Of a DNA stretch of 64,000 nucleotides, positions 2,432 through 49,781 are shown in pieces (positions within the stretch are counted from its first letter, which is position 1; the number at the start of each line of letters is the position of its first letter). The notes under the pieces are model-generated. The model was given only the letters and a program-made list of their open reading frames with translations. It did no database searches and was not told the DNA's origin. The DNA comes from Candidatus Dormiibacterota bacterium (lineage in GTDB: Bacteria > Chloroflexota > Dormibacteria > Aeolococcales > Aeolococcaceae): positions 261,703-325,702 of the forward strand of contig CAWKDT010000020.1 of NCBI GenBank assembly GCA_963848445.1, in the 5' to 3' direction. The translations under genes and the position numbers were made by a program.

Positions 2432-2432
2432 C

Positions 2433-2819: not shown

Positions 2820-2839
2820 ACTCGGCTTCCTTCAGGGCC

Positions 2840-6271: not shown

Positions 6272-6275
6272 GGAT

Positions 6276-7594: not shown

Positions 7595-8028
7595 CAAGTC
7601 GCTGGAACTCGCCTCCGGGATACGGGCAGGCGCCTCAACGGTGAAGGACGCAGGCCCGCCCGCCGCCGAACGTGGCGTCGCAGGTGTGCGACAGCCTGGA
7701 ACAGGGTAGAGCTCCACCAGCCCTGCGGGCGGGTGCGCCGGCGACACCGAGCTTCGACGGCACGAACCTCCCCGGGCAGACCGGGCACCCCGCGCGACCG
7801 GAGCCCTGCTCGCCACCGACACGTCAGCAGGACGGGTGCGATATGTGTACATGGCCGCGGGCGATGCGATCGCCCTGGCTGCGGGCAGCGACGGCACCGT
7901 GTATCTCGCGACACAGGGCAACGGGATCGCGGCCGCCACCGCCCCCTGAGGCGCACCGCGAAAGGCGCATACGCCGGTGCCGGCGCGGACGCGAAGCGCC
8001 CGTCCGGCGGGTCGGTCCATGTGGCAGC

Positions 8029-9135: not shown

Positions 9136-9167
9136 CTTCCGGAACCAGGCGCACGCCGGTATGACGA

Positions 9168-10619: not shown

Positions 10620-11839
10620 TGGTCGCCGCCGAGAGAGCCCTCGATGTGTTCGCCGCCATCGTCGGCGCCGATCAGGTCCGCGAGGCGCGACCCGCGGACG
10701 CGGTGGGCGGGGTGGTTCCGCGCGTCGTGGTGTCGCCCGCAGACGAGCCCGAGGTCGCGGCCGTGCTCGCCGCGGCAACCCGCGAACGCCTCGCGGTCGT
10801 GCCACGCGGCGGCGCAACCAAGCTCGGCTGGGGCATGCCGCCGCGGCGCTGCGACGTCGTGCTGTCGACGGCGCGCATCGCCGGGATCGTCGACCACGAG
10901 CCCGCCGACCTGGTCTGCGTGGTCCGCGCCGGAACACTGCTCGCGGCACTCCAGCGGACGCTCGCCTCGACCGCAGGCTTCCGCCAGCGGCTGATGCTCG
11001 ACCCCGCTCACGGGGATGCGGCGACCGTCGGCGGGGTCGTCGCGACCGCGGCGAGCGGACCGTTGCGCACCCGGTTCGGCACGCCGCGCGACCTCGTGAT
11101 CGGTGCCGCCTTCGTGCTCGCTGACGGCACGGCCGGCCGCAGCGGCGGGAAGGTCGTCAAGAACGTGGCCGGCTTCGATGTGGCCAAGCTCCTCGTCGGC
11201 TCGATGGGAACGCTCGCAGTGATCACCGAGGTCGCGGTGCGCCTGCACCCGCTCCCGGAGGCGTCGCGAACGGTGCTGCTCGAGTCGCGGTCCATCGACG
11301 ACCTGTGCTCATGTGCACGCGGTCTCGCGCGGCTTCAGGTGACGCCGAGCGTGGTCGATCTCCATCTGCCGGATGGCCTCGTGCTCGTGCGCTTCGACAG
11401 CTCCGAGCGCGGGGCGACGCTCCAGGCCGAGCGCGTGATCCGAGAGATCGGCGGCCGCATGGTGCGTGACGGCGAGGCGGCGTCACTGGCCAGCCGGTAT
11501 GAGCGGTCGCCGTGGTCGGAGGATGGCGCCGTCGCCGCGCTTGCGGTGCTGCCGGCACGCGTCGCGGAGCTCGTGACGTCGATCGCCGGTATGTGTGATG
11601 CCGTGGTGATGCGCCCCTTGCTCGGCACCGGAGAGGCGCGGTTCACGCCGGATGCCGCGGCGGCCGTTCGCGCCGCGGCGGAACGATGCGGCGGTCGCGT
11701 GACGGTGAGGCGCGGGCGCGCGGACGGCGAGCCCGAGGGCGGGATCGACGCCGTCGCCCTTGACCTCATGCGGTCGGTGAAGGGTCAGCTCGATCCGGCC
11801 GGAACGTTGAGTCCAGGCCGCCTGACCGGTGGCATCTGA
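10619..11839 (+). CDS. glcE: glycolate oxidase FAD-binding subunit GlcE
   Basis: TGATG overlap with glcD; FAD-binding-4 domain (VVPRGGATKLGWG, KNVAGFDVAKL). Confidence 0.75.
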   Translation: MVAAERALDVFAAIVGADQVREARPADAVGGVVPRVVVSPADEPEVAAVLAAATRERLAVVPRGGATKLGWGMPPRRCDVVLSTARIAGIVDHEPADLVCVVRAGTLLAALQRTLASTAGFRQRLMLDPAHGDAATVGGVVATAASGPLRTRFGTPRDLVIGAAFVLADGTAGRSGGKVVKNVAGFDVAKLLVGSMGTLAVITEVAVRLHPLPEASRTVLLESRSIDDLCSCARGLARLQVTPSVVDLHLPDGLVLVRFDSSERGATLQAERVIREIGGRMVRDGEAASLASRYERSPWSEDGAVAALAVLPARVAELVTSIAGMCDAVVMRPLLGTGEARFTPDAAAAVRAAAERCGGRVTVRRGRADGEPEGGIDAVALDLMRSVKGQLDPAGTLSPGRLTGGI

Positions 11840-22034: not shown

Positions 22035-24743
22035 TCAGCTGGGCCGGCGGCTGACATGATCGATGCCGCCCGAGCCCTGCGCCAGTGACGCGATGTCGTA
22101 CCGGTCGCGGGCACCCGTGCGGCGCAGCAGGAGGTCCGCGACGAGGCCGGTCCAGCCGGTCTGATGCGACGCGCCGAGCCCCCGGCCGGTGTCGGCGTGG
22201 AAGTACTCGTGGAACGGGATGAGCCCCGCGAGATCCGGCCGGGCGTAGAGGCCGGTGCCCGCGACGACCGGTCGCGTCCCCGTGGCGTCCTCCAGGAAGA
22301 GGCCGGTCAGCCGCCCGGCGATCGCATCGGCGACGGCGCCGAGGTGCTCCTGGCGGCCGGATCCGCTGGGGTATTCCACCGTCCAGTCGTCGCCGAGGAA
22401 CCGGTGGTAGCAATGGAGTGCCTCGACAATGAGGTGATTGACGGGGAACCAGACCGGCCCCCGCCAGTTCGAGTTCCCCCCGAAAAGGCGGGTCGTCGAT
22501 TCGGCGGGCTCGTAGTCGAGCCGCGCGATGGTCCCCTCGATGTCGAGCTCGAGCGGATGGTCAGCGTGGAATCGGGAGAGGGCGCGGAGCCCGTGCGGGC
22601 TCAGGAACTCCTCCTCGTCGAGCACGCGGTGGAGGATCCGCCGCAGACGGTCGGGATCGACGATGGCGAGCAGCCGGTTCTGGCGCTCGTTCGGTTCGAC
22701 GGCGAGCGCGATGGCGGCCGCAAAGCCTGGCTTGACCGCGACGAACCGGCGCAGCCGTTCGGCGAACTCAGGAAGCACCCCGAGTGTGTCGTGCCCGAGG
22801 GTGGTGGCCGCGCAGAGCGGGATGAGACCCACGATCGACCGCGCCGGGATCGGAATTCGCGATCCGTCGGCGAGGTGCAGGCTGTCGTAGTAGAAGCCCG
22901 AATCGTCGTCCCACAACCCCTGGTCGTTCATCGCGGTGGCGATGGCGGCGAAGTGCTCGAAGAACTTCGTCGCGACGTCCTCGTACGTGCGGTCGTATGC
23001 GGCGAGGATGAGCGCGGTCTCGAGAAGGTTCAGCGAGTACATCGCCATCCACGCGGTGCCGTCCGACTGCTCGAGGTGCCCGCCGGTGGGCGGCATCTCG
23101 GACCTGTTGAACGGGCCAATGTTGTCGAGCCCGAGAAATCCGCCTTCGAAGATGTTGTTGCCCTCGGCGTCCTCGCGGTTGACCCACCATGTGAAATTGA
23201 TGAGCAGCTTGTGGAAGACGCGCGCGAGAAACCGATGATCGGTCGCGCCGTCGATCTCGAACACGCGAAGCGCCGCCCACGCGTGCACCGGAGGGTTGAC
23301 GTCGTCGAAGGACCATTCGTATGCCGGCAGCTGGCCATCAACATGCATGTACCACTCACGGCACAGCAGGATGAGCTGCTGCTTGGCGAACTCGGGGTCG
23401 ACGTGGGCGAGGGCGACGCACTGAAACCCGAGGTCCCACGCCGCGAACCACGGGTACTCCCACTTGTCGGGCATCGAGATCACGTCGGCGGTGTCGACAT
23501 GCCGCCATCCGGCGTTGCGGCCGGTGAGACGCTGTGCCGGCGGCGTCGGTTCCTCGGGGTCACCGTCGAGCCAGCGGGCGACGTTGTAGTGATAGAACTG
23601 CTTCGACCACAGCATCCCCGCCAGCGCCTGGCGCGCGACAAGCCGCTCGTCCGGGGTGAGGGTCGCCGGGAGCACGGTCGCGTAGAACGCGTCGGCCTCA
23701 CTCCGGCGCCGGGCCAGCACGTCGCCGGTACCGGCGTCTCCCGGGGCATCGCGTCGACCGAGGCGGAGCCTGATCGCGGCGGTGCCGCCGGGCGTCACAG
23801 TCAGGACGTAGTGCAGCGCCGCCTTCGTGCCGGTGAGCGCCGGGTTGACCGTCGCCGCGCCGCCGACCACGTGGTCGTTGATCCCGTCCTTGGGATACGC
23901 GCTCCGGCCGGCCGATCCCCACAGTCGCATCGCGTTCGTCTCGTTGTCGCAGAACAAGGGCGTATGCGTCCCGTCGCCGGTGAGCGACCACCGGCCGAGG
24001 TCCGGGTGATCCGCGACGATGCTCTCCGCGTCCCACGCAAGCGATGGGACGATGCTGTCACGGTCCCACGCCCATGTGTTCCGGAACCACAGCGTCGGCA
24101 GCGCGTGCAGGATGGCAGTCTCGCTGCCGGCATTGCGCACGCGCAGCTCGCACACGATGTCGTCGGGGGACGTCTTCGCGTAGTCGACCGTGATGTCCCA
24201 GAACCCCGTGTCGAGCACGCCTGTGTCGGCGAGCTCGTACTCGGGGTCGAGCGTGGTGCGGCGCCCGTTCTCATCGACGAGATCCTGGTACGGAAACGGG
24301 CGCTGGGGGTAGAGGTATCGCCACCGCATCCATGAATGCGTCGGGGTCGAGTCGACGTACCACCAGTACTCCTTGGCGTCCTCACCGTGGTTGCCCTGAG
24401 GTCCCGTCAGCCCGAAGATTCGTTCCTTGAGGATCGGATCGACACCGTTCCAGAACGCAAAGGCCATGCAGAGCTGCTGATGATCGTCACAGATGCCGCC
24501 GAGCCCATCCTCGCTCCAGCGAAACGCCCGCGAGCGAGCATGGTCGTGGGGAAGGTAGTTCCACGCATCCCCGTTCTCGCTGTAGTCCTCACGCACGGTC
24601 CCCCACGCCCGCTCGCTGAGGTACGGGCCCCAGCGGCGCCAGGCAGCGGGATCGTCACGGAGCCGCCGGCGCTCAGGGTCCTCGTTGCTCACGTCCGGCG
24701 GCGACGATACCACCCCGGTCCCGACTGAATGCTCACACCGCAT
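22035..24743 (-). CDS. GH63-family glycoside hydrolase (processing α-glucosidase / mannosyl-/glucosyl-glycerate hydrolase-like (α/α)6 enzyme)
   Basis: About 900 aa; C-terminal FHEYFHADTGRGLGASHQTGWTGLVADLL and EWSFDDVNPPVHAWA motifs typical of GH63/MGH; start uncertain (ATG 24743 or GTG 24692) because a pseudogene remnant occupies the opposite strand here. Confidence 0.7.
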   Translation of the reverse strand: MRCEHSVGTGVVSSPPDVSNEDPERRRLRDDPAAWRRWGPYLSERAWGTVREDYSENGDAWNYLPHDHARSRAFRWSEDGLGGICDDHQQLCMAFAFWNGVDPILKERIFGLTGPQGNHGEDAKEYWWYVDSTPTHSWMRWRYLYPQRPFPYQDLVDENGRRTTLDPEYELADTGVLDTGFWDITVDYAKTSPDDIVCELRVRNAGSETAILHALPTLWFRNTWAWDRDSIVPSLAWDAESIVADHPDLGRWSLTGDGTHTPLFCDNETNAMRLWGSAGRSAYPKDGINDHVVGGAATVNPALTGTKAALHYVLTVTPGGTAAIRLRLGRRDAPGDAGTGDVLARRRSEADAFYATVLPATLTPDERLVARQALAGMLWSKQFYHYNVARWLDGDPEEPTPPAQRLTGRNAGWRHVDTADVISMPDKWEYPWFAAWDLGFQCVALAHVDPEFAKQQLILLCREWYMHVDGQLPAYEWSFDDVNPPVHAWAALRVFEIDGATDHRFLARVFHKLLINFTWWVNREDAEGNNIFEGGFLGLDNIGPFNRSEMPPTGGHLEQSDGTAWMAMYSLNLLETALILAAYDRTYEDVATKFFEHFAAIATAMNDQGLWDDDSGFYYDSLHLADGSRIPIPARSIVGLIPLCAATTLGHDTLGVLPEFAERLRRFVAVKPGFAAAIALAVEPNERQNRLLAIVDPDRLRRILHRVLDEEEFLSPHGLRALSRFHADHPLELDIEGTIARLDYEPAESTTRLFGGNSNWRGPVWFPVNHLIVEALHCYHRFLGDDWTVEYPSGSGRQEHLGAVADAIAGRLTGLFLEDATGTRPVVAGTGLYARPDLAGLIPFHEYFHADTGRGLGASHQTGWTGLVADLLLRRTGARDRYDIASLAQGSGGIDHVSRRPS

Positions 24744-25023
24744 CGAGATGCGCTTGACTCGCCGGACGGGACGCGGTATCTCGACTTCAACAGCCAGTTG
24801 GTGGGCGTGAACATCGGCCACGGGACAAGCGTGTCGTGGCGGCGATCGCACGCCAGGCCGAGCGACTCGCTTACATCAGCCCCTTCATTGCGCACGAGCC
24901 CCGGGCGCTGCTTGGAACGTGATGACCAACCCGCCGCTGCGCATCCCCGAAGAGCAGCTCGCAGCGGGATTCGCGGTCATCGACGAGGCTCTGGCGATCA
25001 CCGATCGATCCGTCAGGCCGTAG
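24729..25023 (+). pseudogene. decayed class-III (ω-)aminotransferase remnant (N-terminal about 60 aa + frameshift + C-terminal about 30 aa; the central about 330 codons are deleted)
   Basis: Frame 0: …GTRYLDFNSQLVGVNIGHG; +2 frame continues DKRVVAAIARQAERLAYISPFIAHEPRALLGT*; then a third fragment …NPPLRIPEEQLAAGFAVIDEALAITDRSVRP* ending at 25023. Confidence 0.6.
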
Positions 25024-33893: not shown

Positions 33894-34487
33894 CTACAGG
33901 GTGAACGTCGTCCGCCCGAGGGCTGCCAGCGCCTCGGGGTCGCCGTCGACTGTGACCTGCGCCGCGGTGCGCCGGCCACTGAGGAAGAGCGTGAGCTCCG
34001 TGGCAGGGCCGCGCATCAGCGCCCGCGGCCCCGAACCGAACGCTCGGCGGACGCCGTCGGGCCTCACCAGCTCGAGGCTGTACGGACCGAGCCTGCGGAC
34101 GAGCCGTTTCGCGCTGTAGCCGGTGAGCCGCCACGCAAGCGCGTCGACGTCGGGGATGCCGGTGCGCGGCCCGCGGCCGTTGGCCCTGCGGACGTCCTCG
34201 TGGTGGATGAAGAATTCCAGGCCGTTCAGCACGTTGCGGAGGCGGGGCAGGCGCCACGGGATGAGCGGAGCCCCGGCTCGCAGGCGCGCGACCAGCGCGG
34301 GAAATCCCTTCGCCTTCTCGGCAGCCAGGCGCGGTGCCGGCCACCGATGGAAGTGCTCGCGGAGGACCAGATGTGCGGCGATGTCCGCCGCCGTCCACCC
34401 CTCACAGAGGGTGGGGGCGTCAGGGCCCACCTCGATGAGCAGGTCACAGAGCTCACGGCGTTCCCGGACGTCGATGGGCTCGCTCAC
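33894..34487 (-). CDS. MDMPI-N / DinB_2-like protein (mycothiol-dependent maleylpyruvate isomerase N-terminal-domain family, TIGR03083/03085-like)
   Basis: CEGWTAADIAAHLVLREH motif and 197-aa size typical of this actinobacterial family. Confidence 0.5.
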   Translation of the reverse strand: MSEPIDVRERRELCDLLIEVGPDAPTLCEGWTAADIAAHLVLREHFHRWPAPRLAAEKAKGFPALVARLRAGAPLIPWRLPRLRNVLNGLEFFIHHEDVRRANGRGPRTGIPDVDALAWRLTGYSAKRLVRRLGPYSLELVRPDGVRRAFGSGPRALMRGPATELTLFLSGRRTAAQVTVDGDPEALAALGRTTFTL

Positions 34488-34769
34488 GCCGGCTCCGCCG
34501 GCGACATGACGTGCTCGACCGCGCTGGGATGCGGAGCAGCATCCCCTGGCGCCGCGAGGAAGCCAGGCAGTGACGCTGATCGCGACGGGAAGGTGACGTT
34601 CATGGACGTCGAGGGTAGCGGGGTGGCCGGATCCAGCCGTCGCCCGGGGCGCATCGAGTTCATCGACACTCGAGGGATCGGCGATATTTGGCGACCTCGG
34701 GTTGTGGGTACGGTAGTTGTGAAGCCTGGCGAGGCTGCGCGGCAGCGTTTCCGGGTGCAGAGACAGAGG

Positions 34770-37092: not shown

Positions 37093-37219
37093 CGGACTCG
37101 TGCGCCGGCCGCGGAGGCGCGCCGCTGTGCTCGTGGCGATGGGCGACCATACGTCGGATGGACCTGGTCTTTGGGACCGACGCTCCCTTTCGCCGCCGTC
37201 CCTGAGGCGCTGCCGCCGC

Positions 37220-38497
37220 ATGCAGATACAGTGGACTTGGCGACGGGTGCTCCTCGTCGTCCTGCTCGTCGCCGGCGCGGCGTACTTCGTGGTGGCGGCG
37301 GTGAAGGAGATGCGAGCCCCCGAGGCCGGCGTCCACGATTTCGGTGTCTACTACCGCGCCGCCGTCGCCATCACTCACGGCGGGCGCCTGTACGCGACCC
37401 CACCCGCGTGCTGCTTCAACGTCGCGGCGATGACCGGCTACACCTACCCGCCCGTCTTCGCCGCGCTCTTGATTCCGTTGACGTGGCTGCCCGTCGACGA
37501 TGCGGGCCGCGTGTGGCTGGTCGTCTGCTACGTGTCGCTGCTGGTCGTGCTGCTCGCGGGAGTGCGCGCGGCACCGCAACCGCTCGACCGCGAGTCGATC
37601 CTGTGGCTCGGTGTCGTATTCCTCGTCGCGGGCTCGGTGGCATTCGCGCTCTACGAGATGCAGGCCACGCCGCTCGTCGTCGCACTCGAGGCGATCTTCG
37701 CGCTGTGCGTCATCCGCAACAGGTTCGTCTTCGTCGGAGGACTCTGCCTTGCGCTCGCCGCGGCGTTCAAGGTGTCACCGATCCTGATTGCGCCGGCCAT
37801 CCTCCTGCTGCCGCGGCCAGGCTCGTATCGGGCGCTCGCGGGGTTGATCGGTGGGCTGGTGGCGACAGGACTGCTGAGCCTCGCGCTCACCCACGAGGCA
37901 ACGGACTATGTATTTCACGTGTTGCCCAGCTTCTCGGGTGGTGTCGTGTCGCTGAACAATCTCTCGCTGCCCGGGGTGATCCTGCGCGCGCTCGTCGCCG
38001 CCGGCCTGCATCCGGCGGCCTCACTGGACATCCCCTTCCTGACACTCGAGATCGCCGCGCTCGTTGCGACGTGGCTGTTGTGCCGGGGGATCGGCGGCGC
38101 CGCCGGCCGCGCGTTGATGATCGCCGGGCTCCTCGCCGTGGTCCCGATCGTGCAGGGCGTCACCTGGGATCACCACCTGATCGCCGACATCCTGGTGCTG
38201 ATCCTGATGGTGCCGTACCTTCGCACCTGGTCGCCGGCGTGGGTCCTCGCCGTCGGCGGTACGATCGTCGCAACCGCGAACCAGCACGTCCTCGAGAACT
38301 GGCTTGCCACCCACGGTGTCGCGGCCCCCTACAACGCGTTCACCTACGCGGCCTTCGTGGCTGCGGCGTCCTGCAACCTCATCGGCATGTGCGGGCTCTG
38401 GATCGCGGTGGTGATCACCGCGCGCCGGATGCGCGCCGGTGCTGCTGCCGATCCCAGGCCCGGCGTGCGCGTATCGCGGCCCGCGGTAACGACCTGA
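37220..38497 (+). CDS. GT87 / DUF2029-family polytopic membrane glycosyl(mannosyl)transferase
   Basis: Multi-TM protein with the GT-C/DUF2029 pattern (YTYPPVFAALLIPLTWL, FKVSPILIAPAILLLP). Confidence 0.6.
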   Translation: MQIQWTWRRVLLVVLLVAGAAYFVVAAVKEMRAPEAGVHDFGVYYRAAVAITHGGRLYATPPACCFNVAAMTGYTYPPVFAALLIPLTWLPVDDAGRVWLVVCYVSLLVVLLAGVRAAPQPLDRESILWLGVVFLVAGSVAFALYEMQATPLVVALEAIFALCVIRNRFVFVGGLCLALAAAFKVSPILIAPAILLLPRPGSYRALAGLIGGLVATGLLSLALTHEATDYVFHVLPSFSGGVVSLNNLSLPGVILRALVAAGLHPAASLDIPFLTLEIAALVATWLLCRGIGGAAGRALMIAGLLAVVPIVQGVTWDHHLIADILVLILMVPYLRTWSPAWVLAVGGTIVATANQHVLENWLATHGVAAPYNAFTYAAFVAAASCNLIGMCGLWIAVVITARRMRAGAAADPRPGVRVSRPAVTT

Positions 38498-39476: not shown

Positions 39477-42413
39477 CTACTGAAACCAGCCCTCGATATC
39501 GATCACGGCGTTGACCGTGCCCGCGCTGTTGAAGAGCCCCACATCGCCGTCATGCGCGTCGGCGGTGGTATCGAGCTGCACCACCGCGAGGTTGGGCAGG
39601 ACCTGGTTCGCCGCGAGGTTGAGATCCGACGCGTGGGGATGGCTCAGGTTCGCCGGGTACAGCACGAGGTAGGTCGGCTGCGTCGAGAGGATCCCGGTCA
39701 GGTTGGCGATCACGGCGACCGCCGGAGTCCCGGCGGAGGTGGGCGGCACCCCACCCACACCCGCGACGCCGACGGTGCGGATCGTGCCCGCGCCCAATGT
39801 CTGTCCGGCGCATGGCAGATGCGATCCAGGCCGGGTGTCGCAGATGCGACTTGGCCCGATCGCCTGGTACTGCGATCCTGCCACCGCAGACGCGTCACCG
39901 AACCAGCCATTGGCATCGAGGATCACATTGATCGTGCCCGCGGCATTGTAGACGCAGACGGACGTGGCGTTGCCACCGGGGGCGGACGGCCCGAGCGCAA
40001 CCATGACGCGATTCGCCACCACGGCTCCGGCCGCGAGGTTGAGCGTCGAAAATGGCGGCGCATGAGTCCCGACGTACGTGCATGCGCCACTCGCGTTGGT
40101 AGGGAAAACGCTCAGGAACGTCGGCGAAGTCCCTGCCACACCCGTTAGATTGAGCACTGCAGCCTGCGCGGTGCCATCGCCTGGGATCCCGCTCGCTCCC
40201 GTCACCGCGACCCTGATGGCCGTGCCCGCATGCAATGCGGCGTTGGAACCGCAGCCACCGCGCGTATCGCACACTCGCACCGGGGCGATCGGATGAAACT
40301 CGCCGGCTGCGGTGCTCGATGCCGGGGGCTCGAAATACCCCTCGACGTCCGCGACGACGTTGACCGTCCCGAGCGCGTTGTAGATGCTCACCTCGCGCTG
40401 GCTGTCCGAGGCGCCGCTCTGGCCCAGCGTGACGGTCACGAGATTCGCGCTAGCCGTGTGTGCAGCGAAGTTGAGGTTCGACGCCTGCGGGCGTCCCGTC
40501 CCGTTGGGAAACACCGTCAGCAGGCTGAACGAGTTGTCAAAGACCGCAGTGGTGTTGATCACGACAGCCGTCGCATCAGCGGGGATCGGGTCTGTGCCGC
40601 CTGGCAGACCGGTGACGCCCGTGATCTGCAGGGTCCGCGTGGCTCCGGGCCCCAGCGCCCCCGGACCGCACTGGATACATGAGCCCGAGCGAGTGTCGAG
40701 GATGCGGAACGGCGTGACCGGCACGTAGTTGGCGAGGCTCGTGTAGATGTACCCGGCGCCGGCGGTGAGCGGGCTCGTGCCAAGCGTGTCGGACACCTGC
40801 ACGCTCACATAGCCGGCGGGGCCAGGCGGTGTCGTGAACGTGAACGTGGTGCCGGTGATCGAGGCGGGGGTGACGGAGACGCTACCGATCGTTGCCGTCA
40901 TCCCTGACTTGAACCCGACCCCCGAGACGGTCACCGTCTGACCGCCGGCGATCGGACCGGCGGCGGGCGTGACGGCGGTGATGTTGGGGCCGGACGGCAC
41001 GGCGTTCACCCGGTCACCGCCCTCCACGAAGATCATCCCGTTGGATGCGGACGGCGACGTGAAGTGATTGCTGCCGCTGATCGAGTAGCCGGCGAGCATG
41101 TTCCCGGTGCCGGCGTCGTACTGGTACAGCGTGTCGCTCACTGCGCTGACCGCCCAGACGCCGCCACCGACCACGATCGGTGGCTTGTCCGACGCCTGGC
41201 TCGTGTTGTGCCAGCCGAGGGAGAAGTTGTTGTTCGAGGCGGCGATCTGCACCGCCCGCAGCCCGTCACTGCATCCTACGAACACGGTCTCCACGCCGCC
41301 GACCATCGCGTACGCGAGGCTGCCGAAGGCCGCGTCGCTCGTCGCCGAGCACACCCGGTGGGACGCGATCCCGCCGCTGATGTGTCCGAGGGATGTGCTG
41401 TCGAGCAGGTAGCCCATGCCGCTCTTGCCCACCTCGAACACGCGGTTGGACGGGAGCTGCAGCGGCGTGGTCGATCCAAGATCGGCGTCGCTCGCGTTGT
41501 CCTCCCACCATGTGGGGCCGCCGCCGTGGTTTGCGTCGGTGACGCCGCTCGGAGCGAAGTAGTCGGCGACACTCAGCGTGGTGGGCGTGAGCTCGACGAC
41601 CGCATCGCTGTCGTCGTAGGCGTCGGTGCTGTTGGTGTGATTGCTATTACCGGTCGCGACGTACACGTCCCCGCCGGCGTCGATCGATGCGCCGCCGGCT
41701 GCCCACACGCCGGCCTCCATGTCCGTCGAGTTGTCCGCCGCGGACGCCCACCACTGCACCGTCCCGCTGCCCGTCTCCGGATACGACATGACGTAACCGC
41801 GATATCCGTCGGTGGCATTGTTCGGGTTGGTGCAGTCCCCGGCGAGGCCTCCCAGCGTCGCGTACACCTCGCCGCCGGCGACGGTCAGGGCGCCGCGCTG
41901 CTGCTGGTAGTTGGCGTCGAAGTTGATCCCGCTGCGGTTGCCGGGGTCGATGTTCACCTGCCGCGTGACCGCCCCGGCGAGCGTCAGCGTGACGAGGTCG
42001 AACTCGAAGTGCGTCGGACTGTCCTGGATCTCGGCGACCACGTAGATGTTGCCGGCGTCGATAACCGGCGTTCCGGTGATGCCCAGCGGCATGATGTCGC
42101 CACACGGGAAGTTGGCGGTGCGTGGTGTTCCGATGTGTTTGGTCCACTGAACCTGGCCCGTCGTCGCGTTGAGGGAATACACGGTGTCGTTCTCGGTGGC
42201 GACGACCACCTGGTTCCCCACGATCAGGGGCTGGCCGTAGAGCTGGCCGTCCAGCGCCGGAGAGGTCCACGGCGCCGTGCCGGCAAGGGCCTGGTCCGTG
42301 GTGTCGTCGCCCTGACGGGTGTTGTTCCCGTGATAGGTCGTCCAGTCCGCGGCGGCCTGCGTCAAGGCCAGCAGCGGCGCCACGGCCGCCAGGATGATCG
42401 GGAACCGGCGCAC
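39477..42413 (-). CDS. large secreted protein: PQQ-like β-propeller + IPT/TIG domain + three C-terminal about 110-aa repeats (xPxRxxDTR… type)
   Basis: GTG 42413 gives signal peptide MRRFPIILAAVAPLLALTQAAA|DW; propeller blades (TVYSLNATTGQVQWTK, LYQYDAGTGNMLAGY); IPT (PNITAVTPAAGPIAGGQTVTVSGVGF); 3 repeats each starting …P(V/I)xP(F/V/S)R(I/V)(L/C)DTR and ending …GWF/GYF. Confidence 0.7.
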   Translation of the reverse strand: MRRFPIILAAVAPLLALTQAAADWTTYHGNNTRQGDDTTDQALAGTAPWTSPALDGQLYGQPLIVGNQVVVATENDTVYSLNATTGQVQWTKHIGTPRTANFPCGDIMPLGITGTPVIDAGNIYVVAEIQDSPTHFEFDLVTLTLAGAVTRQVNIDPGNRSGINFDANYQQQRGALTVAGGEVYATLGGLAGDCTNPNNATDGYRGYVMSYPETGSGTVQWWASAADNSTDMEAGVWAAGGASIDAGGDVYVATGNSNHTNSTDAYDDSDAVVELTPTTLSVADYFAPSGVTDANHGGGPTWWEDNASDADLGSTTPLQLPSNRVFEVGKSGMGYLLDSTSLGHISGGIASHRVCSATSDAAFGSLAYAMVGGVETVFVGCSDGLRAVQIAASNNNFSLGWHNTSQASDKPPIVVGGGVWAVSAVSDTLYQYDAGTGNMLAGYSISGSNHFTSPSASNGMIFVEGGDRVNAVPSGPNITAVTPAAGPIAGGQTVTVSGVGFKSGMTATIGSVSVTPASITGTTFTFTTPPGPAGYVSVQVSDTLGTSPLTAGAGYIYTSLANYVPVTPFRILDTRSGSCIQCGPGALGPGATRTLQITGVTGLPGGTDPIPADATAVVINTTAVFDNSFSLLTVFPNGTGRPQASNLNFAAHTASANLVTVTLGQSGASDSQREVSIYNALGTVNVVADVEGYFEPPASSTAAGEFHPIAPVRVCDTRGGCGSNAALHAGTAIRVAVTGASGIPGDGTAQAAVLNLTGVAGTSPTFLSVFPTNASGACTYVGTHAPPFSTLNLAAGAVVANRVMVALGPSAPGGNATSVCVYNAAGTINVILDANGWFGDASAVAGSQYQAIGPSRICDTRPGSHLPCAGQTLGAGTIRTVGVAGVGGVPPTSAGTPAVAVIANLTGILSTQPTYLVLYPANLSHPHASDLNLAANQVLPNLAVVQLDTTADAHDGDVGLFNSAGTVNAVIDIEGWFQ
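39480..40515. repeat. three in-frame tandem repeats (about 330 bp each) encoding the C-terminal 'DTR' domains
   Basis: The same about 110-aa module occurs three times at the C-terminus of the 39477–42413 protein. Confidence 0.5.
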
Positions 42414-42684
42414 TCGAGCATTTTCACCCTTGACCGGCCGCGGGGATGGCGTTCCCGTCACGGCGCACCGCTCCTCGACCGCCGGTCGGCTTCGGCCGGC
42501 GGCTCTCAGGCGAGGAGCGGTCCGACTTTCGCGGCAGCCTGCCGGTCGCAGAGTAGGATCGCCTGATGGCAACGCCGCTCCGCCAGGATGCACGGAACAC
42601 CGCCGCGGTGACCGGGCGTTAGCAGTCTCACGTTTCCGAGGCACGAGGCGGTAGTGCCTCGTCCTCCAGGCGACCGGTAGACCG

Positions 42685-45081
42685 TTGCGCATCGCGTTCG
42701 TCTCGTCCGCCGTGCCCCGCCGTTGCGGCATCGCCACCTTCTCCGCCGACCTCATCGCCGCGGTGCATGCAAGCGATCACACAGTGACGTGCCGCATCGC
42801 CGCGATCGAGGAGCCGGCCGTGCTCCGGCCGTATGGATCGGACGTCCGGTGGCGGATACGGCAGGGCGATCCGGAGAGCTACCGCGCCGCGGCGCGGGCG
42901 ATCAACACCTCGAACGCGGACGTGGTGAATGTGCAACACGAGTTCGGTCTCTACGGCACGTGGACGCAACCCAAATTCGTCGCGGGCCGGTGGACCGAGA
43001 GCGTCTATGACGACTGTCTCCAGCCGTTCCTCGAGGAGCTGCGCAAACCCGTCGTCGTGACCATGCACACCGTGCTGCCGCAGCCGACTCCCTCGATTCG
43101 AGCGACGGTTCGCGCCATCGCCGAGCGCTGCGACGAACTCATCGTGATGGCATCGACCGCTGTTGATCTGCTCGCGAACGACTACGAGCTCGTGAAGCCT
43201 CCTCGGGTCATCCCCCACGGGATGCCGGTGATCGAGCCGCATGGACGTCTGCGATTCAAGGACAAGCTCGGGGTCAAGGGGCGCACGATCATCTCGACCT
43301 TCGGTCTTGTGGACCCACGCAAAGGGCTCCAGTACATGATCGAAGCCATGTCCCGGGTGATCGCTGAGCACCCGGACGCCCTTTACCTCATTGCCGGACA
43401 GACCCATCCGGATCTTCTGCGCGCGCAGGGCGAGGAGTACCGGAATTCGCTGGTCGCGCAGATACGGTCGCTGCAACTCGACGATCACGTCGCGTTCATC
43501 GACACCTACATGACCCAGCGCGACATCATCGAACTGCTGCTCGCGACCGACGTCTATGTGACGCCGTACCTCGACCCCAACCAGATCACGAGCGGCACCC
43601 TTTCGTACGCCCTGGGCGCCGGAAAGGCGGTCGTCTCGACCCGGTACCTGCACGCTGCCGAGGCGCTGAGCGATGGCCGCGGTGTGCTCGTCGACTTCCG
43701 TGATGCGGGACAGCTGGCACATGCGGTGACGGCCATCCTCGGCGACACGATCGCGAAGAAAGCGCTGGAGGATGCGGCGTTCGCATATGCGCATAACGCG
43801 ACATGGCCTCGATCAGCCCAGGCCTTCCTGGGGGTGATGAGCGAGGCCGCAACGATGCGGAAATCTCGTGGCGTCTCGCCGGCGGTGGCCACGCACGACA
43901 TGGGTCGGCGCTCGAATGAGAATCCGATCCTCTCAGCAGCCGACGTTCGCCCGTCACTCCCCGGTCTCGAGGTCATCTCGGTGTTCAACGCCGCGGCGGC
44001 GCGGGTCGGCGACGAGGTGGTGCTGCTCATCCGTGTCGGTGAGCGACCGAGCCTCGGCGTGGTCCCTCCGGCCGACGCCCTCACGCTCGACCTGACGCGC
44101 CCCGAGCCCGAGATCAAGCCGCTCGGTCCCGGCCACGGAGCCGACGACGTCATCGGAATCGCCTTCCTGGACGCCAAGCAGGAGCCGGCGCGCGTCGTGG
44201 AGGTGTTCATCCCGAGGGACACGCCCGGGCTCGACCTCAGCGATCCGCGTGCGATTCGCTATCGCAATCTCACCGGCGGTTTCACGGCCGCGGCGGACGA
44301 CGTCAGCGACTTCCTCACCCAGATGTCGCACCTGCGCGTCGCGCGCAGCCACGACGGCATCCACTTCGAAGTCGAGAACGAGCCCGCGGTGGTGCCGGCA
44401 AATCGTTTCGAGGAGTACGGCTGCGAGGATCCGCGGGCCACGCTCATCGACGGCGTCTGGCATATCACCTATGTCTCCGTGAGCCGGATCGGCATCAGCA
44501 CCAGCCGGCTCACGACCACGGACTTCCGCTCATTCGAACGGCACGGGGTCATGTTCCTGCCCGATCACAAGGACGTCGTGCTGCTTCCCGGCCGGGTCGG
44601 AGGACGGTACGCAGCGCTGACGCGGCCGATGCCCCAGTCGTTCGGCCGCGTGCTCGGCATCTGGATCGCGTTCTCCGACGATCTGGTCCACTGGGGTGAG
44701 CACGCGCCGCTTGCACTGCCGCGGCCCGGCATGTGGGATGAGCTGCGTACCGGGGCGAGCGCCGTCCCATTCCGCGTCGAACAAGGCTGGCTCGAGATCT
44801 ACCACGGCGTCGATCGCAACACGCGGTATGCGCTCGGCGGCCTGCTGCTCGACGGCGACGACCCGAGCCGGGTGATCGCCCGGTCCCCGGAGCCGATCCT
44901 CGTGCCGACCGCGCCATACGAGCGCGACGGCCTCTACAACGACGTCGTGTTCACCTGCGGGCACGTCCCGCTCGATCCCGAGGGGAAGGACATCCGTGTC
45001 TACTACGGTGCCGCCGACAGCTGCCTCGCGGTGGCGGACTTCACCGTTCGAGACATTCTTGACCAAATGACTCCGTGCTGA
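42685..45081 (+). CDS. bifunctional-looking fusion: N-terminal GT4 glycosyltransferase + C-terminal GH130-family (mannoside phosphorylase/β-mannosidase-like) domain
   Basis: GT4 region MRIAFVSS…VTPYLDPNQITSGTLSYALGAGKAVVST (EX7E-like); GH130 5-bladed-propeller motifs in the C-terminal 330 aa (WHITYVSV, EIYHGVD, VVFTCGHV, YYGAADSCLAVADF). Confidence 0.75.
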   Translation: MRIAFVSSAVPRRCGIATFSADLIAAVHASDHTVTCRIAAIEEPAVLRPYGSDVRWRIRQGDPESYRAAARAINTSNADVVNVQHEFGLYGTWTQPKFVAGRWTESVYDDCLQPFLEELRKPVVVTMHTVLPQPTPSIRATVRAIAERCDELIVMASTAVDLLANDYELVKPPRVIPHGMPVIEPHGRLRFKDKLGVKGRTIISTFGLVDPRKGLQYMIEAMSRVIAEHPDALYLIAGQTHPDLLRAQGEEYRNSLVAQIRSLQLDDHVAFIDTYMTQRDIIELLLATDVYVTPYLDPNQITSGTLSYALGAGKAVVSTRYLHAAEALSDGRGVLVDFRDAGQLAHAVTAILGDTIAKKALEDAAFAYAHNATWPRSAQAFLGVMSEAATMRKSRGVSPAVATHDMGRRSNENPILSAADVRPSLPGLEVISVFNAAAARVGDEVVLLIRVGERPSLGVVPPADALTLDLTRPEPEIKPLGPGHGADDVIGIAFLDAKQEPARVVEVFIPRDTPGLDLSDPRAIRYRNLTGGFTAAADDVSDFLTQMSHLRVARSHDGIHFEVENEPAVVPANRFEEYGCEDPRATLIDGVWHITYVSVSRIGISTSRLTTTDFRSFERHGVMFLPDHKDVVLLPGRVGGRYAALTRPMPQSFGRVLGIWIAFSDDLVHWGEHAPLALPRPGMWDELRTGASAVPFRVEQGWLEIYHGVDRNTRYALGGLLLDGDDPSRVIARSPEPILVPTAPYERDGLYNDVVFTCGHVPLDPEGKDIRVYYGAADSCLAVADFTVRDILDQMTPC

Positions 45082-46133
45082 GGCAGATCGCACGTCTCGG
45101 TCGCTCCGTAGCCTTCGCCGGGCCTCGAGCCATCGCCATCGCGGTGTACGCGGATGAACGCGACCAGCTGATACGGGCGCAGGAGGCCGGCTACGAAGGC
45201 GTCGCCTGCGTGGATGATGCGGCCCGCGCCCTCGAGCTGTACTGCGACCTCTGGGAGGCGACGCGGCTGCCGTGGGTGATGCGCTGGTGCGAGGGGCTTC
45301 TCGACTTCGTGCTTGCGATGCAGGAGCCGGACGGGCGCTGGCTGAACTTCATCCGCGACTGGGACGGAACGCCCAACCGCGGAGGCCGCACCTCCGTTGC
45401 GGGGGGCGGCTTCTGGCAGGCCCGCGCGTTGATGGCGCTCATTCGCGCGTCAGCAGTCCTCGATGACCGGCGCATCGGGATTGCCGTGGCGCATGCCGTG
45501 CCCCATATCCGTGCGGCGACCGCCGTGCCGGCTGACGTCCGCGCCCTGCATATCAGGGCCGCCCTCGCGACCCTCGGCAGCGCGGACGATCATGGTCTTG
45601 TCGAGATCCTGCCCGAATGGGTCGAGGAACTCCTGAGCTGCCGGGAGGGCGACGTGCTCATGAACTCACCCGACGAGCGAGGCCGCCCTCACCTGTGGGG
45701 TCATATCCAGGAAGGCGTCCTCGCCGACGTCGCCGCGCGCATGAATCGCGATGAGGTGCTCGAGGTCGCGCGGCGAAGCGCCGAGCTGGTGTTCACAGGT
45801 GTGGTCACCGGTGGGTTCCGCGAGCCGCACGTTCAGCCGTACGACGTCGCCTCCTCCGTCTATTCGCTGGGTAGGCTTGCGGAGGTGACCGGTGCACCGG
45901 CCTATCGCGCACTCGCCGGCGACGCATGCGCATGGTTTCTCGGGCGCAACCCCGCCGGTGCGCCGATCTACGACGAGGCTTCCGGACGGGTACACGACGG
46001 TGTCGACGAAGGACGCGTGAACGCACACTCGGGCGCCGAGTCCAACATCGTCGGTGCCCAGGCGCTCTTCGACGTGGCGACCGCGGTTGCCCGCCGACTC
46101 ACCGTTGCCGAGGGTCTCCCCGGCTCAGCCTGA
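45075..46133 (+). CDS. hypothetical protein, possibly (α/α)6-barrel (AGE/epimerase-like) carbohydrate-active enzyme
   Basis: GTG overlaps the previous stop; no confidently recognisable motif, fold guess only (GVACVDDAARALELY, PDGRWLNFIRDWDG). Confidence 0.45.
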   Translation: MLRQIARLGRSVAFAGPRAIAIAVYADERDQLIRAQEAGYEGVACVDDAARALELYCDLWEATRLPWVMRWCEGLLDFVLAMQEPDGRWLNFIRDWDGTPNRGGRTSVAGGGFWQARALMALIRASAVLDDRRIGIAVAHAVPHIRAATAVPADVRALHIRAALATLGSADDHGLVEILPEWVEELLSCREGDVLMNSPDERGRPHLWGHIQEGVLADVAARMNRDEVLEVARRSAELVFTGVVTGGFREPHVQPYDVASSVYSLGRLAEVTGAPAYRALAGDACAWFLGRNPAGAPIYDEASGRVHDGVDEGRVNAHSGAESNIVGAQALFDVATAVARRLTVAEGLPGSA

Positions 46134-46224: not shown

Positions 46225-47490
46225 ATGCCACACATCAACGCGGGGGACACTGCGTTCGTCCTGATCGGTGCAGCCCTCGTCTGCCTCATGACCCCCGGCC
46301 TGGCCTTCTTCTATGGAGGATTGGTCCGCCGCAAGAATGTCCTGACGATCATGATGCAGAGCTTCATCTCGATGGGTGTTGTCACCATCATCTGGGTGGC
46401 GTTCGGCTTCAGCCTGGCGTTCGGCGGCACCGACCCGGTCACCCACCATCAGTGGGCGCTCAACGGCCTCATCGGCAACTTCGACTACGTCTTCCTGCAC
46501 AACGTCGGAGTCGCCCCCAGTCCTCTCTACAGCTCCACCATCCCGTTCCTTGCCTTCTTCGCGTTCCAGGAGATGTTCGCGATCATCACGCCGGCGCTGA
46601 TCACCGGGGCCTTCGCTGACCGCGTGTCGTTCAAGAGCTATCTGCTGTTCCTGGTGGGTTGGAGCGTCCTGATCTACATCCCGTTCGCACACTGGGTCTG
46701 GGGCGGCGGGTTCCTGATGCAGTGGGGCCTCAAGGACTTCGCGGGGGGCATCGTCGTTCACCTCAGCGCGGGGTTTGCGGCACTCGCCTCGGTGTTCGTC
46801 GTGGGCAAGCGCGTCCTCCAACCCGGGGAGAAGCTCGCCCCGCACAACATCGCGTTCGTGGCGCTGGGTACGGGCCTGTTGTGGTTCGGGTGGTTCGGGT
46901 TCAACGCCGGAAGCGCGGGGGCCGCGAACGGCCAGGCAGCCATTGCCTTCGTCAATACCGACATCGCTGCTTCCTTCGGCATGCTGACCTGGCTCTTCCT
47001 CGCCTGGTACAAGGACAAGAAACCCGGCATGACCGGGGCCATGGTCGGAGCGGTCGCCGGGCTCGCCTGCGTGACGCCGACGGCCGGCTTCATCGACCCG
47101 TGGGCGGCCGCCGTCGTCGGCGTGGCGGCCGGGTCGATCTGCTACGGCGCCGTCCTGTTCCGAGCGAGGATGGGATGGGATGACGCGCTCGACGTCTGGG
47201 GGTGCCACGGCGTGGGCGGAGCGCTCGGCATCGTGCTCACCGGCGTGTTCTCGGTCGGAGCGTACGCCGGGATCGCCGGACCTGGCCTCATCGGCGGCCG
47301 CCTGCATCTCTTCGGGGTTCAGGTCGCCGGAGCGGCGATCACGATCGTCTACTCGTTTGCGGTCACGTGGCTCATCCTGAAGTTCGTGAACATCTTCGTT
47401 CAGGTGCGTGTGAGCCCTGAGGAGGAGCTGCTGGGGCTGGACGCGATGGAGCATGGGGAGATGGCGTACGCGGGCCTGGATGCCGGTTGA
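46225..47490 (+). CDS. amt: ammonium transporter (Amt family)
   Basis: 11-TM Amt signature (GGLVRRKNVLTIMMQSF, DFAGGIVVHLSAGFAALA, WFGWFGFNAGS). Confidence 0.9.
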   Translation: MPHINAGDTAFVLIGAALVCLMTPGLAFFYGGLVRRKNVLTIMMQSFISMGVVTIIWVAFGFSLAFGGTDPVTHHQWALNGLIGNFDYVFLHNVGVAPSPLYSSTIPFLAFFAFQEMFAIITPALITGAFADRVSFKSYLLFLVGWSVLIYIPFAHWVWGGGFLMQWGLKDFAGGIVVHLSAGFAALASVFVVGKRVLQPGEKLAPHNIAFVALGTGLLWFGWFGFNAGSAGAANGQAAIAFVNTDIAASFGMLTWLFLAWYKDKKPGMTGAMVGAVAGLACVTPTAGFIDPWAAAVVGVAAGSICYGAVLFRARMGWDDALDVWGCHGVGGALGIVLTGVFSVGAYAGIAGPGLIGGRLHLFGVQVAGAAITIVYSFAVTWLILKFVNIFVQVRVSPEEELLGLDAMEHGEMAYAGLDAG

Positions 47491-47815: not shown

Positions 47816-48624
47816 CCTCGGATCGTCGCGAGCCCGAGGGTGCCCTGCCGCGCGCGCCGGTCGGCGCGCCAGCACCCTGCACGCATCGGCACGGGGATCG
47901 CATCCTCACCCGAAAACCACGTGCGCAATGCCTGCCGCGCGCGACCCAGCCCGGCGGCACGTGCGGCCGGGTCAGCCATGATCACCCGGCTGTGGGTCGC
48001 CAGCGCGTCGACGAGGTCGTCGATCGTCATGGTGACGGTGAAGGCGAACGATCTCGCCTCCACGTGGTTGAAGGGCGCGTCCCCGGGGAGCAGCAGCCCG
48101 GTCATCTGCCGCCGCAGGACGGCAATATCGGCATTCGCCGGCGGGTGCTCGGGCGTGGCGATTCGCAGCCGGTCGAGCTCCCGTATCCAGCCCACCTCAC
48201 GGTCGCGGCCGGCCCACACGACGCCGAACCGCCCGTGATCGCGGAGGACGCGCGCGACCTCGGGGAGCGCCCGGTCCGGGTCCATCCAATGCCAGGCGGA
48301 GGAGACGAGCACCGCGTCCTGGGACGCGTCGGGCAGCGGAATCGCCTCTGCACGCCCGTCGATGGCGCGCACCCCCGGCGTGCGAGCGATGAGCACCGCT
48401 CGCATCCGGTCGTCGGGTTCGACCGCGGTGACGTTCGCGACGCTGCCGGCGAGCGCCCGCGTGAACAGTCCGGTGCCGGCTCCGAGATCGACCGCGCTCT
48501 CGCAGTGCCGCGGCAGCAGCCACCTGACCGCAGGCGGCGGCGGTGCGGTACGGAGCCGGTCGTAATCTTCGGCGATTGCCCCGAACGACGTTGCCAGCGG
48601 GTCGTCACGAGCCACGCGACCCAT
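47812..48624 (-). CDS. class-I SAM-dependent methyltransferase
   Basis: Motif I VDLGAGTGLFTRALA and post-I/II acidic residues; ATG 48624. Confidence 0.7.
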   Translation of the reverse strand: MGRVARDDPLATSFGAIAEDYDRLRTAPPPPAVRWLLPRHCESAVDLGAGTGLFTRALAGSVANVTAVEPDDRMRAVLIARTPGVRAIDGRAEAIPLPDASQDAVLVSSAWHWMDPDRALPEVARVLRDHGRFGVVWAGRDREVGWIRELDRLRIATPEHPPANADIAVLRRQMTGLLLPGDAPFNHVEARSFAFTVTMTIDDLVDALATHSRVIMADPAARAAGLGRARQALRTWFSGEDAIPVPMRAGCWRADRRARQGTLGLATIRG

Positions 48625-48640
48625 GGTATGCAGTCCGCCG

Positions 48641-49781
48641 ATGAACGATCTCTTCGATCGGACCGCATGGGTGCTCGACCCGGAGACCCTCCACCTCAAC
48701 CACGGATCGTTTGGCGCGGTCACCAAGGTGGTGCGGCGCGAGCAGGATCGATGGCGCCGCATTGCTCAGGCGAACCCGAATGGGTTCTTCACGCGCGTGC
48801 TCGTCGACGCCCTGGACGCGGTGCGCATCAGGGTCGCGGATTTCGTCCGGGCCGATCCATCGACCCTGCTGCTGCAGCCCAACGTGACGTGGGCCGTATC
48901 GACGGTGCTGGCGTCGTTCCCGCTCCGGCCCGGGGACGAGGTGCTCATCACCGATGACACGTACGCTGCGGTTCGCGCCGCCGCGAGCGACACGTGCGCG
49001 AGGAGCGGCGCGCAGCTGGTGCAGGCGGCCCTTCCCGCATTCGACGAGCGCGATGCCGCGGACATCGTCACGGCGCTGGAGGACCGGCTCACGGCGCGGA
49101 CGCGCCTCGCCATCGTCGACCACATCACATCGCCGACCGCAACGCCGGTCGACCCGTCCGCCATCGTCGAGCGCTGCCGCGCCAACGGCACCGCCGTGCT
49201 CATCGACGGAGCGCACGCACCGGGGATGCTCAGCCTCGACGTCCGCGCGATCGGCGCGGACTTCTACACTGGCAACTTCCACAAATGGTGCTGCGCACCA
49301 TGGGGCTCCGCGTTCCTCACGGTGGCGCCACCGTGGCAGGACGCCCTGCGGTCCGCGGTGCCCGGATCGGAGGCACACCAAGGGTTCCCCGCCGGCCTGG
49401 AGTGGTGGGGCACCGCCGACTACTCCGCGCTGCTCGCGACGCCGTTCGCCCTCGACGTGCTCAAGGAAGTCGGCGTCGAGGCATTGCTCCAACGCAACAT
49501 CGCGCTGGTCAACCAGGGGGCGGCGCTCGTCGCCGCAGCTCTCGGACAGCCGGCCTCCCGCACCGAGCTCGATCGCCATGACGTGCCTCTCACTGCCGCG
49601 CACCATGGCCTGGGACGCCGAGAGCGCTCGCGCGCTGCGCCGGCGTGTTGCCGATGACATCGGCGCGGAGATCATGACGACCATGGCACGTGGCAGCGCC
49701 GTGCTGCGGCTGTCGGCTCACGCGTACAACCGCCTCGACGATTACGAGCGTCTCGCCGCCGACCTGAGCGCGCTGCGGTGA
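48641..49781 (+). CDS. class-V aminotransferase (isopenicillin-N-epimerase/cysteine-desulfurase-like) with apparent 1-nt frameshift near 49610
   Basis: LNHGSFGAV … FYTGNFHKWCCAPWGSAFL; C-terminal 55 aa (DAESARALRRRVADD…YNRLDDYERLAADLSALR) are in a different frame from the body. Confidence 0.6.

Follow-up and report, generated by a model that had tools for sequence, protein, structure and literature searches.

A GT4-GH130 fusion protein and its overlapping (α/α)6-barrel partner in Dormibacterota as a candidate module for mannoside synthesis and recycling

Described systems and how the locus compares

GH130 enzymes are almost always found as single modules: in the 2018 CAZy census more than 99% of the family was monomodular, and GH130-GT81 and GH130-GH130 were the only combinations (PMC7660257). 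Here we analyzed a 64,000-nucleotide stretch of contig CAWKDT010000020.1 from a Candidatus Dormiibacterota bacterium (hereafter the window), in which one gene encodes a GT4 glycosyltransferase and a GH130 β-propeller in the same polypeptide and overlaps the start of a gene for an (α/α)6-barrel protein (the partner). A first-pass annotation of the window had described this fusion as unusual, and relative to the literature it is; our literature search gave nothing relevant on a GT4-GH130 fusion, on YPO2471 or the partner family to which it belongs, on a module of these three parts, or on GH130 in Dormibacterota. With a probability that we put at roughly 45%, the fusion and its partner form a cytoplasmic two-gene, three-domain module that makes and recycles a small soluble mannoside. 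What is new is the domain combination, the atypical GT4 subfamily, the longer lid of the GH130 domain, and the obligate partner, while the family of each catalytic domain was already known.

Among the described systems, the cluster Teth514_1785-1789 of Thermoanaerobacter sp. X-514 encodes two β-1,2-mannoside phosphorylases, a mannose 1-phosphate (Man-1-P) guanylyltransferase, a GT4 protein, and a hypothetical protein (PMC4264767). Like the locus studied here, it contains a β-1,2-type GH130, a GT4 annotated as an α-mannosyltransferase, and an adjoining hypothetical protein of ~340 aa. However, its genes are separate, an ABC transporter and a GH5 are present, and its GH130s belong to subfamily GH130_6, whereas the fusion locus has GT4 and GH130 in one polypeptide, and genes for an ABC transporter, GH5, or Man-1-P guanylyltransferase were found neither in the window nor at the other Dormibacterota loci. 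A homolog of Teth514_1785 is annotated as "glycosyltransferase," the same NCBI label that the Bacillota partners carry (supplementary names and BLAST scores of PMC4264767), and on this circumstantial ground the ~340-aa Teth514_1785 probably belongs to the partner family.

The GH130_4 enzymes Lin0857 (5B0P) and Uhgb_MS (9EQQ/9ERH), which belong to the β-1,2-mannobiose phosphorylases and "mannoside synthases," are monomodular and ~350 aa long, whereas the GH130 of the fusion sits behind GT4, possesses a lid ~30 residues longer, scores below the cutoff of the NCBIfam model NF050092, and differs at the L2-loop positions implicated in GDP-mannose use (Q651, S652, and V656). Another comparison is the mannogen cycle of Leishmania, in which GT108 proteins act as dual-activity mannosyltransferase/phosphorylases (Sernee et al. 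2019, cited in PMC8950772 and PMC10913872). The overall logic of the proposed module resembles this cycle: β-1,2-mannosides made in the cytoplasm with an activated donor, phosphorolysis that returns the mannose as Man-1-P, and a GH130-like β-propeller. Unlike GT108, which holds both activities in one active site and yields long chains, the module would employ a separate retaining GT4 and an (α/α)6 protein, and its lid predicts short products. To our knowledge, no bacterial mannogen has been demonstrated.

The partner has its own points of comparison. YPO2471 of Yersinia pestis (7TEM) is a structural-genomics target named "putative exported protein," whereas the partner is predicted to be cytoplasmic and is tied to GT4 and GH130. 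The AGE superfamily (N-acylglucosamine 2-epimerase, cellobiose 2-epimerase, and mannose isomerase) is alike in fold, but the partner has neither a sequence match to it nor an invariant His. In mannan catabolism, GH130_1 phosphorylases act together with one of these enzymes, cellobiose 2-epimerase.

The fusion gene and its two catalytic halves

The G+C content of the window is ~64 to 74%, long open reading frames (ORFs) occur in several frames, and a 388-aa antisense ORF overlaps the fusion ORF, so that chance long ORFs do occur in DNA of this composition (~68% G+C); the length of the fusion ORF alone is therefore no proof of coding, and the domain matches carry the case. Pfam places PF13439 (Glyco_transf_4) at residues 15 to 180, PF00534 (Glycos_transf_1) at residues 193 to 364 (E value of 1.3e-16), and PF04041 (Glyco_hydro_130) at residues 549 to 795 (E value of 1.8e-46; 159 bits against a cutoff of 26). 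In a PDB sequence search, solved GH130 enzymes matched the protein in two stretches, 409 to 456 and 512 to 795, which indicates that the GH130 domain begins near residue 405 and that a diverged insertion lies between the stretches. Full-length homologs fall into more than 120 clusters of ~800 aa with 63 to 98% identity and both Pfam domains, a scan of species-representative genomes returned dozens of fused loci, 41 such loci were recovered from other assemblies, mostly titled Dormibacterota, and at loci L006 and L007 the codon homologous to the TTG start is ATG. The AlphaFold2 model is confident in both halves, with a mean predicted local distance difference test (pLDDT) of 84.4 and a predicted template modeling score (pTM) of 0.56. 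Because of these homologs, the 41 fused loci, the ATG at the start codon, and the confident fold of both halves, the GT4-GH130 join is genuine and conserved and is not an assembly artefact; thus, the first-pass assignment of both domains to one polypeptide stands, and the search that it recommended for the same fusion in other genomes excluded an artefactual join. Fusions of this kind occur frequently in metagenome bins of Dormibacterota, where automatic annotation labels them "glycosyltransferase" or "glycosidase."

Between the halves, only residues 394 to 402 are disordered in the model (pLDDT of <50), the consensus of the homolog alignment is undefined there, and the standalone GH130 genes of unfused loci start at this very position (e.g., L034, 5995 to 7200). 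The low pLDDT of the linker and the pTM of 0.56 fit a pair of independent modules joined by a flexible tether of ~10 residues.

One 2.2-Mb ENA contig carries only fragments of the two genes (fusion, 257 aa; partner, 266 and 82 aa), while near-identical copies elsewhere are intact, which suggests indel errors of long-read assembly rather than true disruption. Upstream of the TTG start we found no Rfam match above noise and no conservation past close relatives, and a regulatory RNA or leader was discarded on these grounds. A hairpin-like inverted repeat, GAGGCAC-N9-GTGCCTC, lies at 42638 to 42666, ~20 nt upstream of the TTG; it has no Rfam match and is kept in the closest relatives only. Nor did a search for promoter and terminator consensus sites turn up anything noteworthy.

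The GT4 half matches GT4 models above threshold and adopts the GT-B fold. Its nearest solved relatives are PimA and PimB (E value of 4e-9), and its identity to PimA is ~21%. It is not the "canonical" GT4 that the first-pass annotation described, since the alignment with PimA puts N299 and Y308 where the two EX7E glutamates would stand; over this region GGESFGIVLVEAMA of PimA aligns with DPNQITSGTLSYAL of the fusion. In typical GT4 enzymes, one of the EX7E glutamates contacts the nucleotide ribose. The fusion displays the motifs PRRCGIATF, QHEFG, IPHGMP, AGQTHP, and QITSGTLSYALGAG, the last of which stands in the EX7E place, and it keeps the PimA-type PRKG and His motifs, PRKG being conserved in Dormibacterota with an invariant Lys. 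The pattern QITSGTL-x-YA-x-G-x-G is common to the GT4 orthologs of Dormibacterota (fused and unfused), Paenibacillus, Omnitrophota, and a metagenome-assembled genome (MAG) of the PVC group, at 34 to 40% identity, and PR(R/K)CG(I/L)ATF, QHE(F/Y)G, IPHG-x-P, and AG-x-THP are likewise conserved across these phyla. As the variant motifs are shared at only 34 to 40% identity, the alignments indicate that the GT4 half represents a functional yet atypical GT4 subfamily, so far uncharacterized, which is under selection and not decayed.

In the GH130 half, a five-bladed β-propeller superimposable on solved GH130 enzymes, the residues that define the activity of Uhgb_MS (roles from PMC12814180) are all in place. 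R450 and E581 align with its R47 and E136 (β-1,2 specificity, +1 subsite), D582 with the catalytic D137, K629, R647, and R688 with K184, R202, and R242 (phosphate/diphosphate binding), and R522 with R88, the lid Arg closing the pocket. Across 52 fused homologs, each of the seven mapped residues is conserved to 90% or more, if not invariant. In GH130 hydrolases (GH130_3), carboxylates replace the basic phosphate residues (PMC4599007, PMC12814180). With its phosphate-binding residues intact, the GH130 half is predicted to be a β-1,2-mannoside phosphorylase of a GH130_4-like clade; of the two activities that the first-pass annotation had left side by side, phosphorylase is thus retained and hydrolase dropped.

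Another departure of this half from its relatives lies in the lid. The stretch of it from ERP to SDPR spans ~63 aa in the fusion against ~29 to 36 aa in standalone GH130_4 relatives. The GH130_4 subfamily is marked by a lid loop of ~48 to 54 residues; in the fusion a lid and R522 are both present, but the loop is diverged and ~30 residues longer. It lies in the gap between the two HMMER stretches obtained against Lin0857, and its residues 531 to 538 have low pLDDT in the AlphaFold2 model. The lid of characterized GH130_4 enzymes restricts products to a degree of polymerization of 2 to 3 (PMC12814180). NF050092, the β-1,2-mannobiose phosphorylase equivalog, is the top NCBIfam model of the fusion at 350.5 bits, below its cutoff of 550, and it scores 351 for an unfused Dormibacterota ortholog and 531 for Paenibacillus.

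The partner protein and the distribution of the module

The gene directly downstream of the fusion is its one invariant neighbor, present in 51 of the 52 Dormibacterota-type loci with enough downstream sequence. Stop and start overlap by exactly 7 nt, GTGCTGA in the window; an overlap of this length recurs in 49 of the 50 loci that could be scored, whether GT4 and GH130 are fused or not, and implies translational coupling of fusion and partner. Apart from this pair, the flanks of the fusion loci are unrelated between Dormibacterota genomes; at L002, L003, and L004, whose flanks are unlike those of the window, the only neighbor shared with the window is this ORF of 352 to 356 aa.

The partner has no Pfam or NCBIfam match, and its homologs, more than 1,400 in number, are without exception labeled "hypothetical"; its profile matches 1,264 clusters (50% identity) at an E value of ≤0.001. 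The AlphaFold2 model is an (α/α)6 barrel (pLDDT of 93.5) whose fold neighbors are AGE, GH9, GH76, GH8, and GH15 enzymes, and the profile matches 7TEM (YPO2471) by sequence (E value of 1.7e-21), with homology at the level of structure as well. Longer members of the family carry CBM9, sugar-binding-protein, or Por-secretion modules, a content as expected of a carbohydrate-active catalytic domain, as which the family may be regarded.

Across phyla, D48, R51, N91, R156, W208, W287, F288, N292, D308, and E322 are invariant in the partner family, and D47 and D257 nearly so. No His is invariant or nearly invariant across the family, H210 being confined to Dormibacterota, and neither Pfam nor a profile search matched the partner to AGE. 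AGE, cellobiose 2-epimerase, and YihS enzymes use a pair of conserved catalytic histidines. The AGE-type two-His epimerase mechanism was therefore rejected, and of the earlier description of this gene as an (α/α)6 epimerase-like neighbor the fold was confirmed but not the epimerase. Its conserved carboxylates would rather point to the active center of a glycosidase, transglycosylase, or phosphorylase, and D47-D48 might form a catalytic Asp-Asp pair like that of GH76. We inspected the fusion and the partner by eye, with no predictor run, and saw no signal peptide or transmembrane features; the N termini are parts of the structured folds, from which we infer that both proteins are cytoplasmic and soluble.

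In six Dormibacterota loci (L034 to L036, L038, L039, and L042), GH130 is a standalone gene of ~400 aa, coupled to the partner wherever downstream sequence exists (L039 ends too early). The orthologous GT4 (61 to 65% identity) lies 1 to 3 kb off; it either precedes these genes on the other strand or follows them on the same one. The unfused genes nest among the fused ones in a neighbor-joining tree computed without support values, which suggests that they arose by fission or rearrangement.

The same three parts also recur in other phyla in other arrangements (Table 1). In the Omnitrophota and PVC-group MAGs (L079 and L080), it is the GT4 that is joined to a partner-like region, and the neighboring GH130 genes are of the β-1,2 type; the C-terminal region of ~365 aa has no Pfam match, shows the C-terminal signature of the partner (hhalign probability of 88%), and aligns over its full length with the partner family. 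Paenibacillus naphthalenovorans (L068) has an operon with a Man-1-P guanylyltransferase-type nucleotidyltransferase, GT4, a partner-like protein (hhalign probability of 95.7%), a mutase of the phosphoglucomutase/phosphomannomutase (PGM/PMM) family, and GH130. In Geobacillus thermodenitrificans and Effusibacillus lacus (L084 and L085), the operon keeps GT4 and partner, and no GH130 was found within the flanks examined. Such alternative pairwise fusions and conserved clustering are the classic signature of one pathway or complex. The Bacillota partner has been named "glycosyl transferase" (NCBI) and "YyaL/SSP411" or "YesR" (JGI), names for which we found no experimental basis.

Table 1. Coordinates of the fusion gene, its parts, the partner gene, and other features mentioned in the text (window positions unless a locus is named)
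Feature	Coordinates	Strand	Remarks
GT4-GH130 fusion gene	42685..45081	+	798 aa, TTG start, TGA stop; ORF, Pfam/NCBIfam matches, homologs
GT4 (GT-B, retaining-type) glycosyltransferase domain	42685..43863	+	residues 1-393
Interdomain linker	43864..43896	+	residues ~394-404; weak conservation, predicted disorder
GH130 five-bladed β-propeller domain, predicted β-1,2-mannoside phosphorylase type	43897..45078	+	residues ~405-798
Extended lid of GH130 domain	44050..44298	+	residues ~456-538
Start/stop overlap GTGCTGA, fusion gene/partner gene	45075..45081	+	7 nt; from sequence
Partner gene, YPO2471 family	45075..46133	+	352 aa, (α/α)6 barrel
GH63/MGH1-like gene	22035-24851	-	domain real
GT87 gene	37100-38497		domain real; ~5 kb upstream of fusion
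L079 (Omnitrophota MAG)	5938-11178		~750-aa GT4 plus partner-like region, beside 2-3 tandem GH130 genes
L080 (PVC-group MAG)	501-4644		~750-aa GT4 plus partner-like region, beside 2-3 tandem GH130 genes; B12-binding radical-SAM gene follows
L084 (Geobacillus thermodenitrificans CP017690)	5790-10476		Man-1-P guanylyltransferase, GT4, partner, then PGM/PMM-family mutase or phosphomannose isomerase (PMI)
L085 (Effusibacillus lacus)	5787-10226		Man-1-P guanylyltransferase, GT4, partner, then PGM/PMM-family mutase or PMI

Within the window, the GH63 and GT87 genes had been read as reinforcing a mannoside theme. Both domains are real, but unrelated genes separate them from the fusion (an EamA transporter, Crp-type regulators, and a large secreted PQQ/TIG protein), and neither is found near the fusion at L002, L003, or L004; they are not conserved neighbors and were rejected as functional context. 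The large secreted-type protein (39477 to 42755, minus strand) combines a PQQ-like β-propeller, TIG, and three C-terminal repeats with the pattern P-x-R-x-x-DTR-x-G; the start of its ORF overlaps that of the fusion and is probably overextended, the corresponding gene in L001 being called at 994 aa. An ammonium transporter gene (46225 to 47490) directly follows the partner, and L004 has amt-PII-glnA ~8 kb upstream of the module, a proximity that is probably coincidental. Compared by blastn with the syntenic, 98%-identical L001, the window shows a ~106-nt insertion at 34484 to 34589 and a ~635-nt insertion at 47875 to 48508, the latter with no clear terminal inverted or direct repeats. A class-V aminotransferase that is intact in L001 falls into two frames of the window (48623 to 49507 and 49569 to 49778); it looks like a frameshift, from either a pseudogene or an assembly indel, and owing to this split the window ORFs there have no Pfam match.

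Proposed function and its alternatives

In the module that we favor, GT4 would transfer an α-mannosyl residue from GDP-mannose onto a soluble acceptor or primer, and GH130 would reversibly add or remove β-1,2-mannose (α-Man-1-P + acceptor ⇌ β-1,2-mannoside + Pi), with the long lid holding the chains short. The barrel partner, with the carboxylates D48, D308, and E322 and no invariant His, would then hydrolyze or transfer the product. The net result would be a mannogen-like reserve or a compatible-solute cycle that sets mannose aside and regains it as Man-1-P without ATP cost, while fusion and translational coupling would hold the three activities at fixed stoichiometry. GDP-mannose is the probable donor because the Bacillota GT4 orthologs share operons with guanylyltransferase and PGM/PMM-family mutase or PMI genes, and short chains are predicted because of the lid.

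Several points weigh against this assignment. The pathway is deduced from genomic context, and both the GT4 subfamily and the YPO2471 family lack a characterized activity. With both EX7E glutamates replaced, donor use may be atypical, and a search of the window and all Dormibacterota loci for GDP-mannose supply genes yielded nothing but a PMI-like gene in L015 and L017, located ~2.6 kb downstream. GH130 may be accessory, given the operons of L084 and L085. The partner-like homology in L068, L079, and L080 amounts to hhalign values of 88 to 96% over the C-terminal 60 to 110 residues plus a full-length alignment at ~20 to 23% identity. The AlphaFold2 model predicts no confident fixed interface between the halves (pTM of 0.56), so that physical channeling is unsupported. 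Finally, phosphorylases usually run catabolically in vivo.

The last point would suit a salvage route, in which imported β-1,2-mannooligosaccharides (e.g., from fungal mannan) are phosphorolyzed by GH130, the resulting Man-1-P is converted to GDP-mannose, and GT4 places the mannose on an unrelated glycoconjugate, the fusion merely co-regulating the first and last steps. The intact phosphate site agrees with such a route, and a pathway of this kind was proposed for Teth514_1785-1796, with the same GH130, GT4, and guanylyltransferase parts (PMC4264767). We nonetheless consider it unlikely for the Dormibacterota loci, where the adjoining ABC transporter, GH5, and guanylyltransferase are missing and the flanks are unrelated between genomes; moreover, the two fused activities are not consecutive steps of the route, and the invariant (α/α)6 partner, the GT4-partner fusions, and the GT4 and partner operons without GH130 would be left unexplained. 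The joining of GT4 to GH130 could also be read as a relay, in which GT4 is a retaining phosphorylase-type transferase, like the GT4 trehalose phosphorylases, that takes up the α-Man-1-P released by GH130 and so turns a β-1,2-mannoside into an α-mannoside with phosphate as a catalyst. What one domain releases would serve the other as donor, the loss of both EX7E glutamates includes the nucleotide-ribose contact, and the scarcity of GDP-mannose genes noted above fits as well. The GT4 family does include phosphorylases (PMC8950772). But the Man-1-P guanylyltransferase genes in the operons of the Bacillota orthologs imply a GDP-mannose donor, the Lys of the diphosphate-binding PRKG motif is invariant, and the halves have no fixed interface in the model, which together make the relay quite unlikely. 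The guanylyltransferase genes of the Bacillota versions also disfavor the direct channeling of Man-1-P raised in the first-pass annotation.

We regard as very unlikely a role in envelope or lipoglycan synthesis, in which GT4, in the manner of PimA, would mannosylate a lipid or wall acceptor with the help of GT87, and GH130 would trim the product. PimA and PimB are indeed the best solved relatives of the GT4 half, and the GT87 gene lies 5 kb upstream. However, the identity to PimA is low, GT87 is unlinked to the fusion in nonsyntenic genomes, the module contains no membrane-associated, flippase, or lipid-carrier genes, and GH130 phosphorylases work in the cytoplasm, on short oligosaccharides that are free (PMC7660257). 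It is hardly credible that the fusion builds or trims mannosylglycerate or mannosylglucosylglycerate together with the GH63 (mannosylglycerate hydrolase-like) enzyme, the substrates put forward in the first-pass annotation. Both solutes are α-linked, which conflicts with the β-1,2 specificity residues of the GH130 half; genes for GpgS, MpgS, or the phosphatase are not nearby, and the GH63 gene, which lies on the opposite strand at a distance of 18 kb, is not kept together with the module. What speaks for these solutes is that the mannosylglucosyl-3-phosphoglycerate synthase MggA is a GT4 α-mannosyltransferase (PMC3736172), that the GH63/MGH1-like gene lies inside the window, and that GH130-GT81 fusions occur in CAZy (PMC7660257).

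Returning to the making and recycling of a small mannoside, a bolder form of this proposal, which we put forward tentatively and hold to be somewhat improbable, is that GT4, GH130, and the YPO2471-family barrel constitute a widespread, unrecognized bacterial "mannogen-like" system that builds a short β-1,2-mannoside inside the cell on an α-mannosyl primer and recycles it by phosphorolysis. The barrel would then found a new family of carbohydrate-active enzymes (e.g., an α-mannoside hydrolase, transglycosylase, or phosphorylase), and the pairwise fusions would reflect a physical three-enzyme complex.

The biochemistry of GH130 β-1,2-mannoside phosphorylases has been characterized, while their physiological substrates in free-living bacteria are still to be assigned, and the authors of a 2025 study left open the physiological role of synthesis by dual-activity GH130 enzymes (PMC12814180). 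A conserved fusion to a glycosyltransferase, an obligate partner, and alternative fusions across phyla together make a strong genomic case for an anabolic or cycling function. The fusion and its partner define a minimal two-gene system open to expression and assay, the cultured Geobacillus and Paenibacillus strains are tractable hosts for the module, and the structural-genomics family of YPO2471 gains a genomic context. For the Dormibacterota, an uncultured soil phylum, the module may point to a carbon-reserve or stress-protectant pathway.

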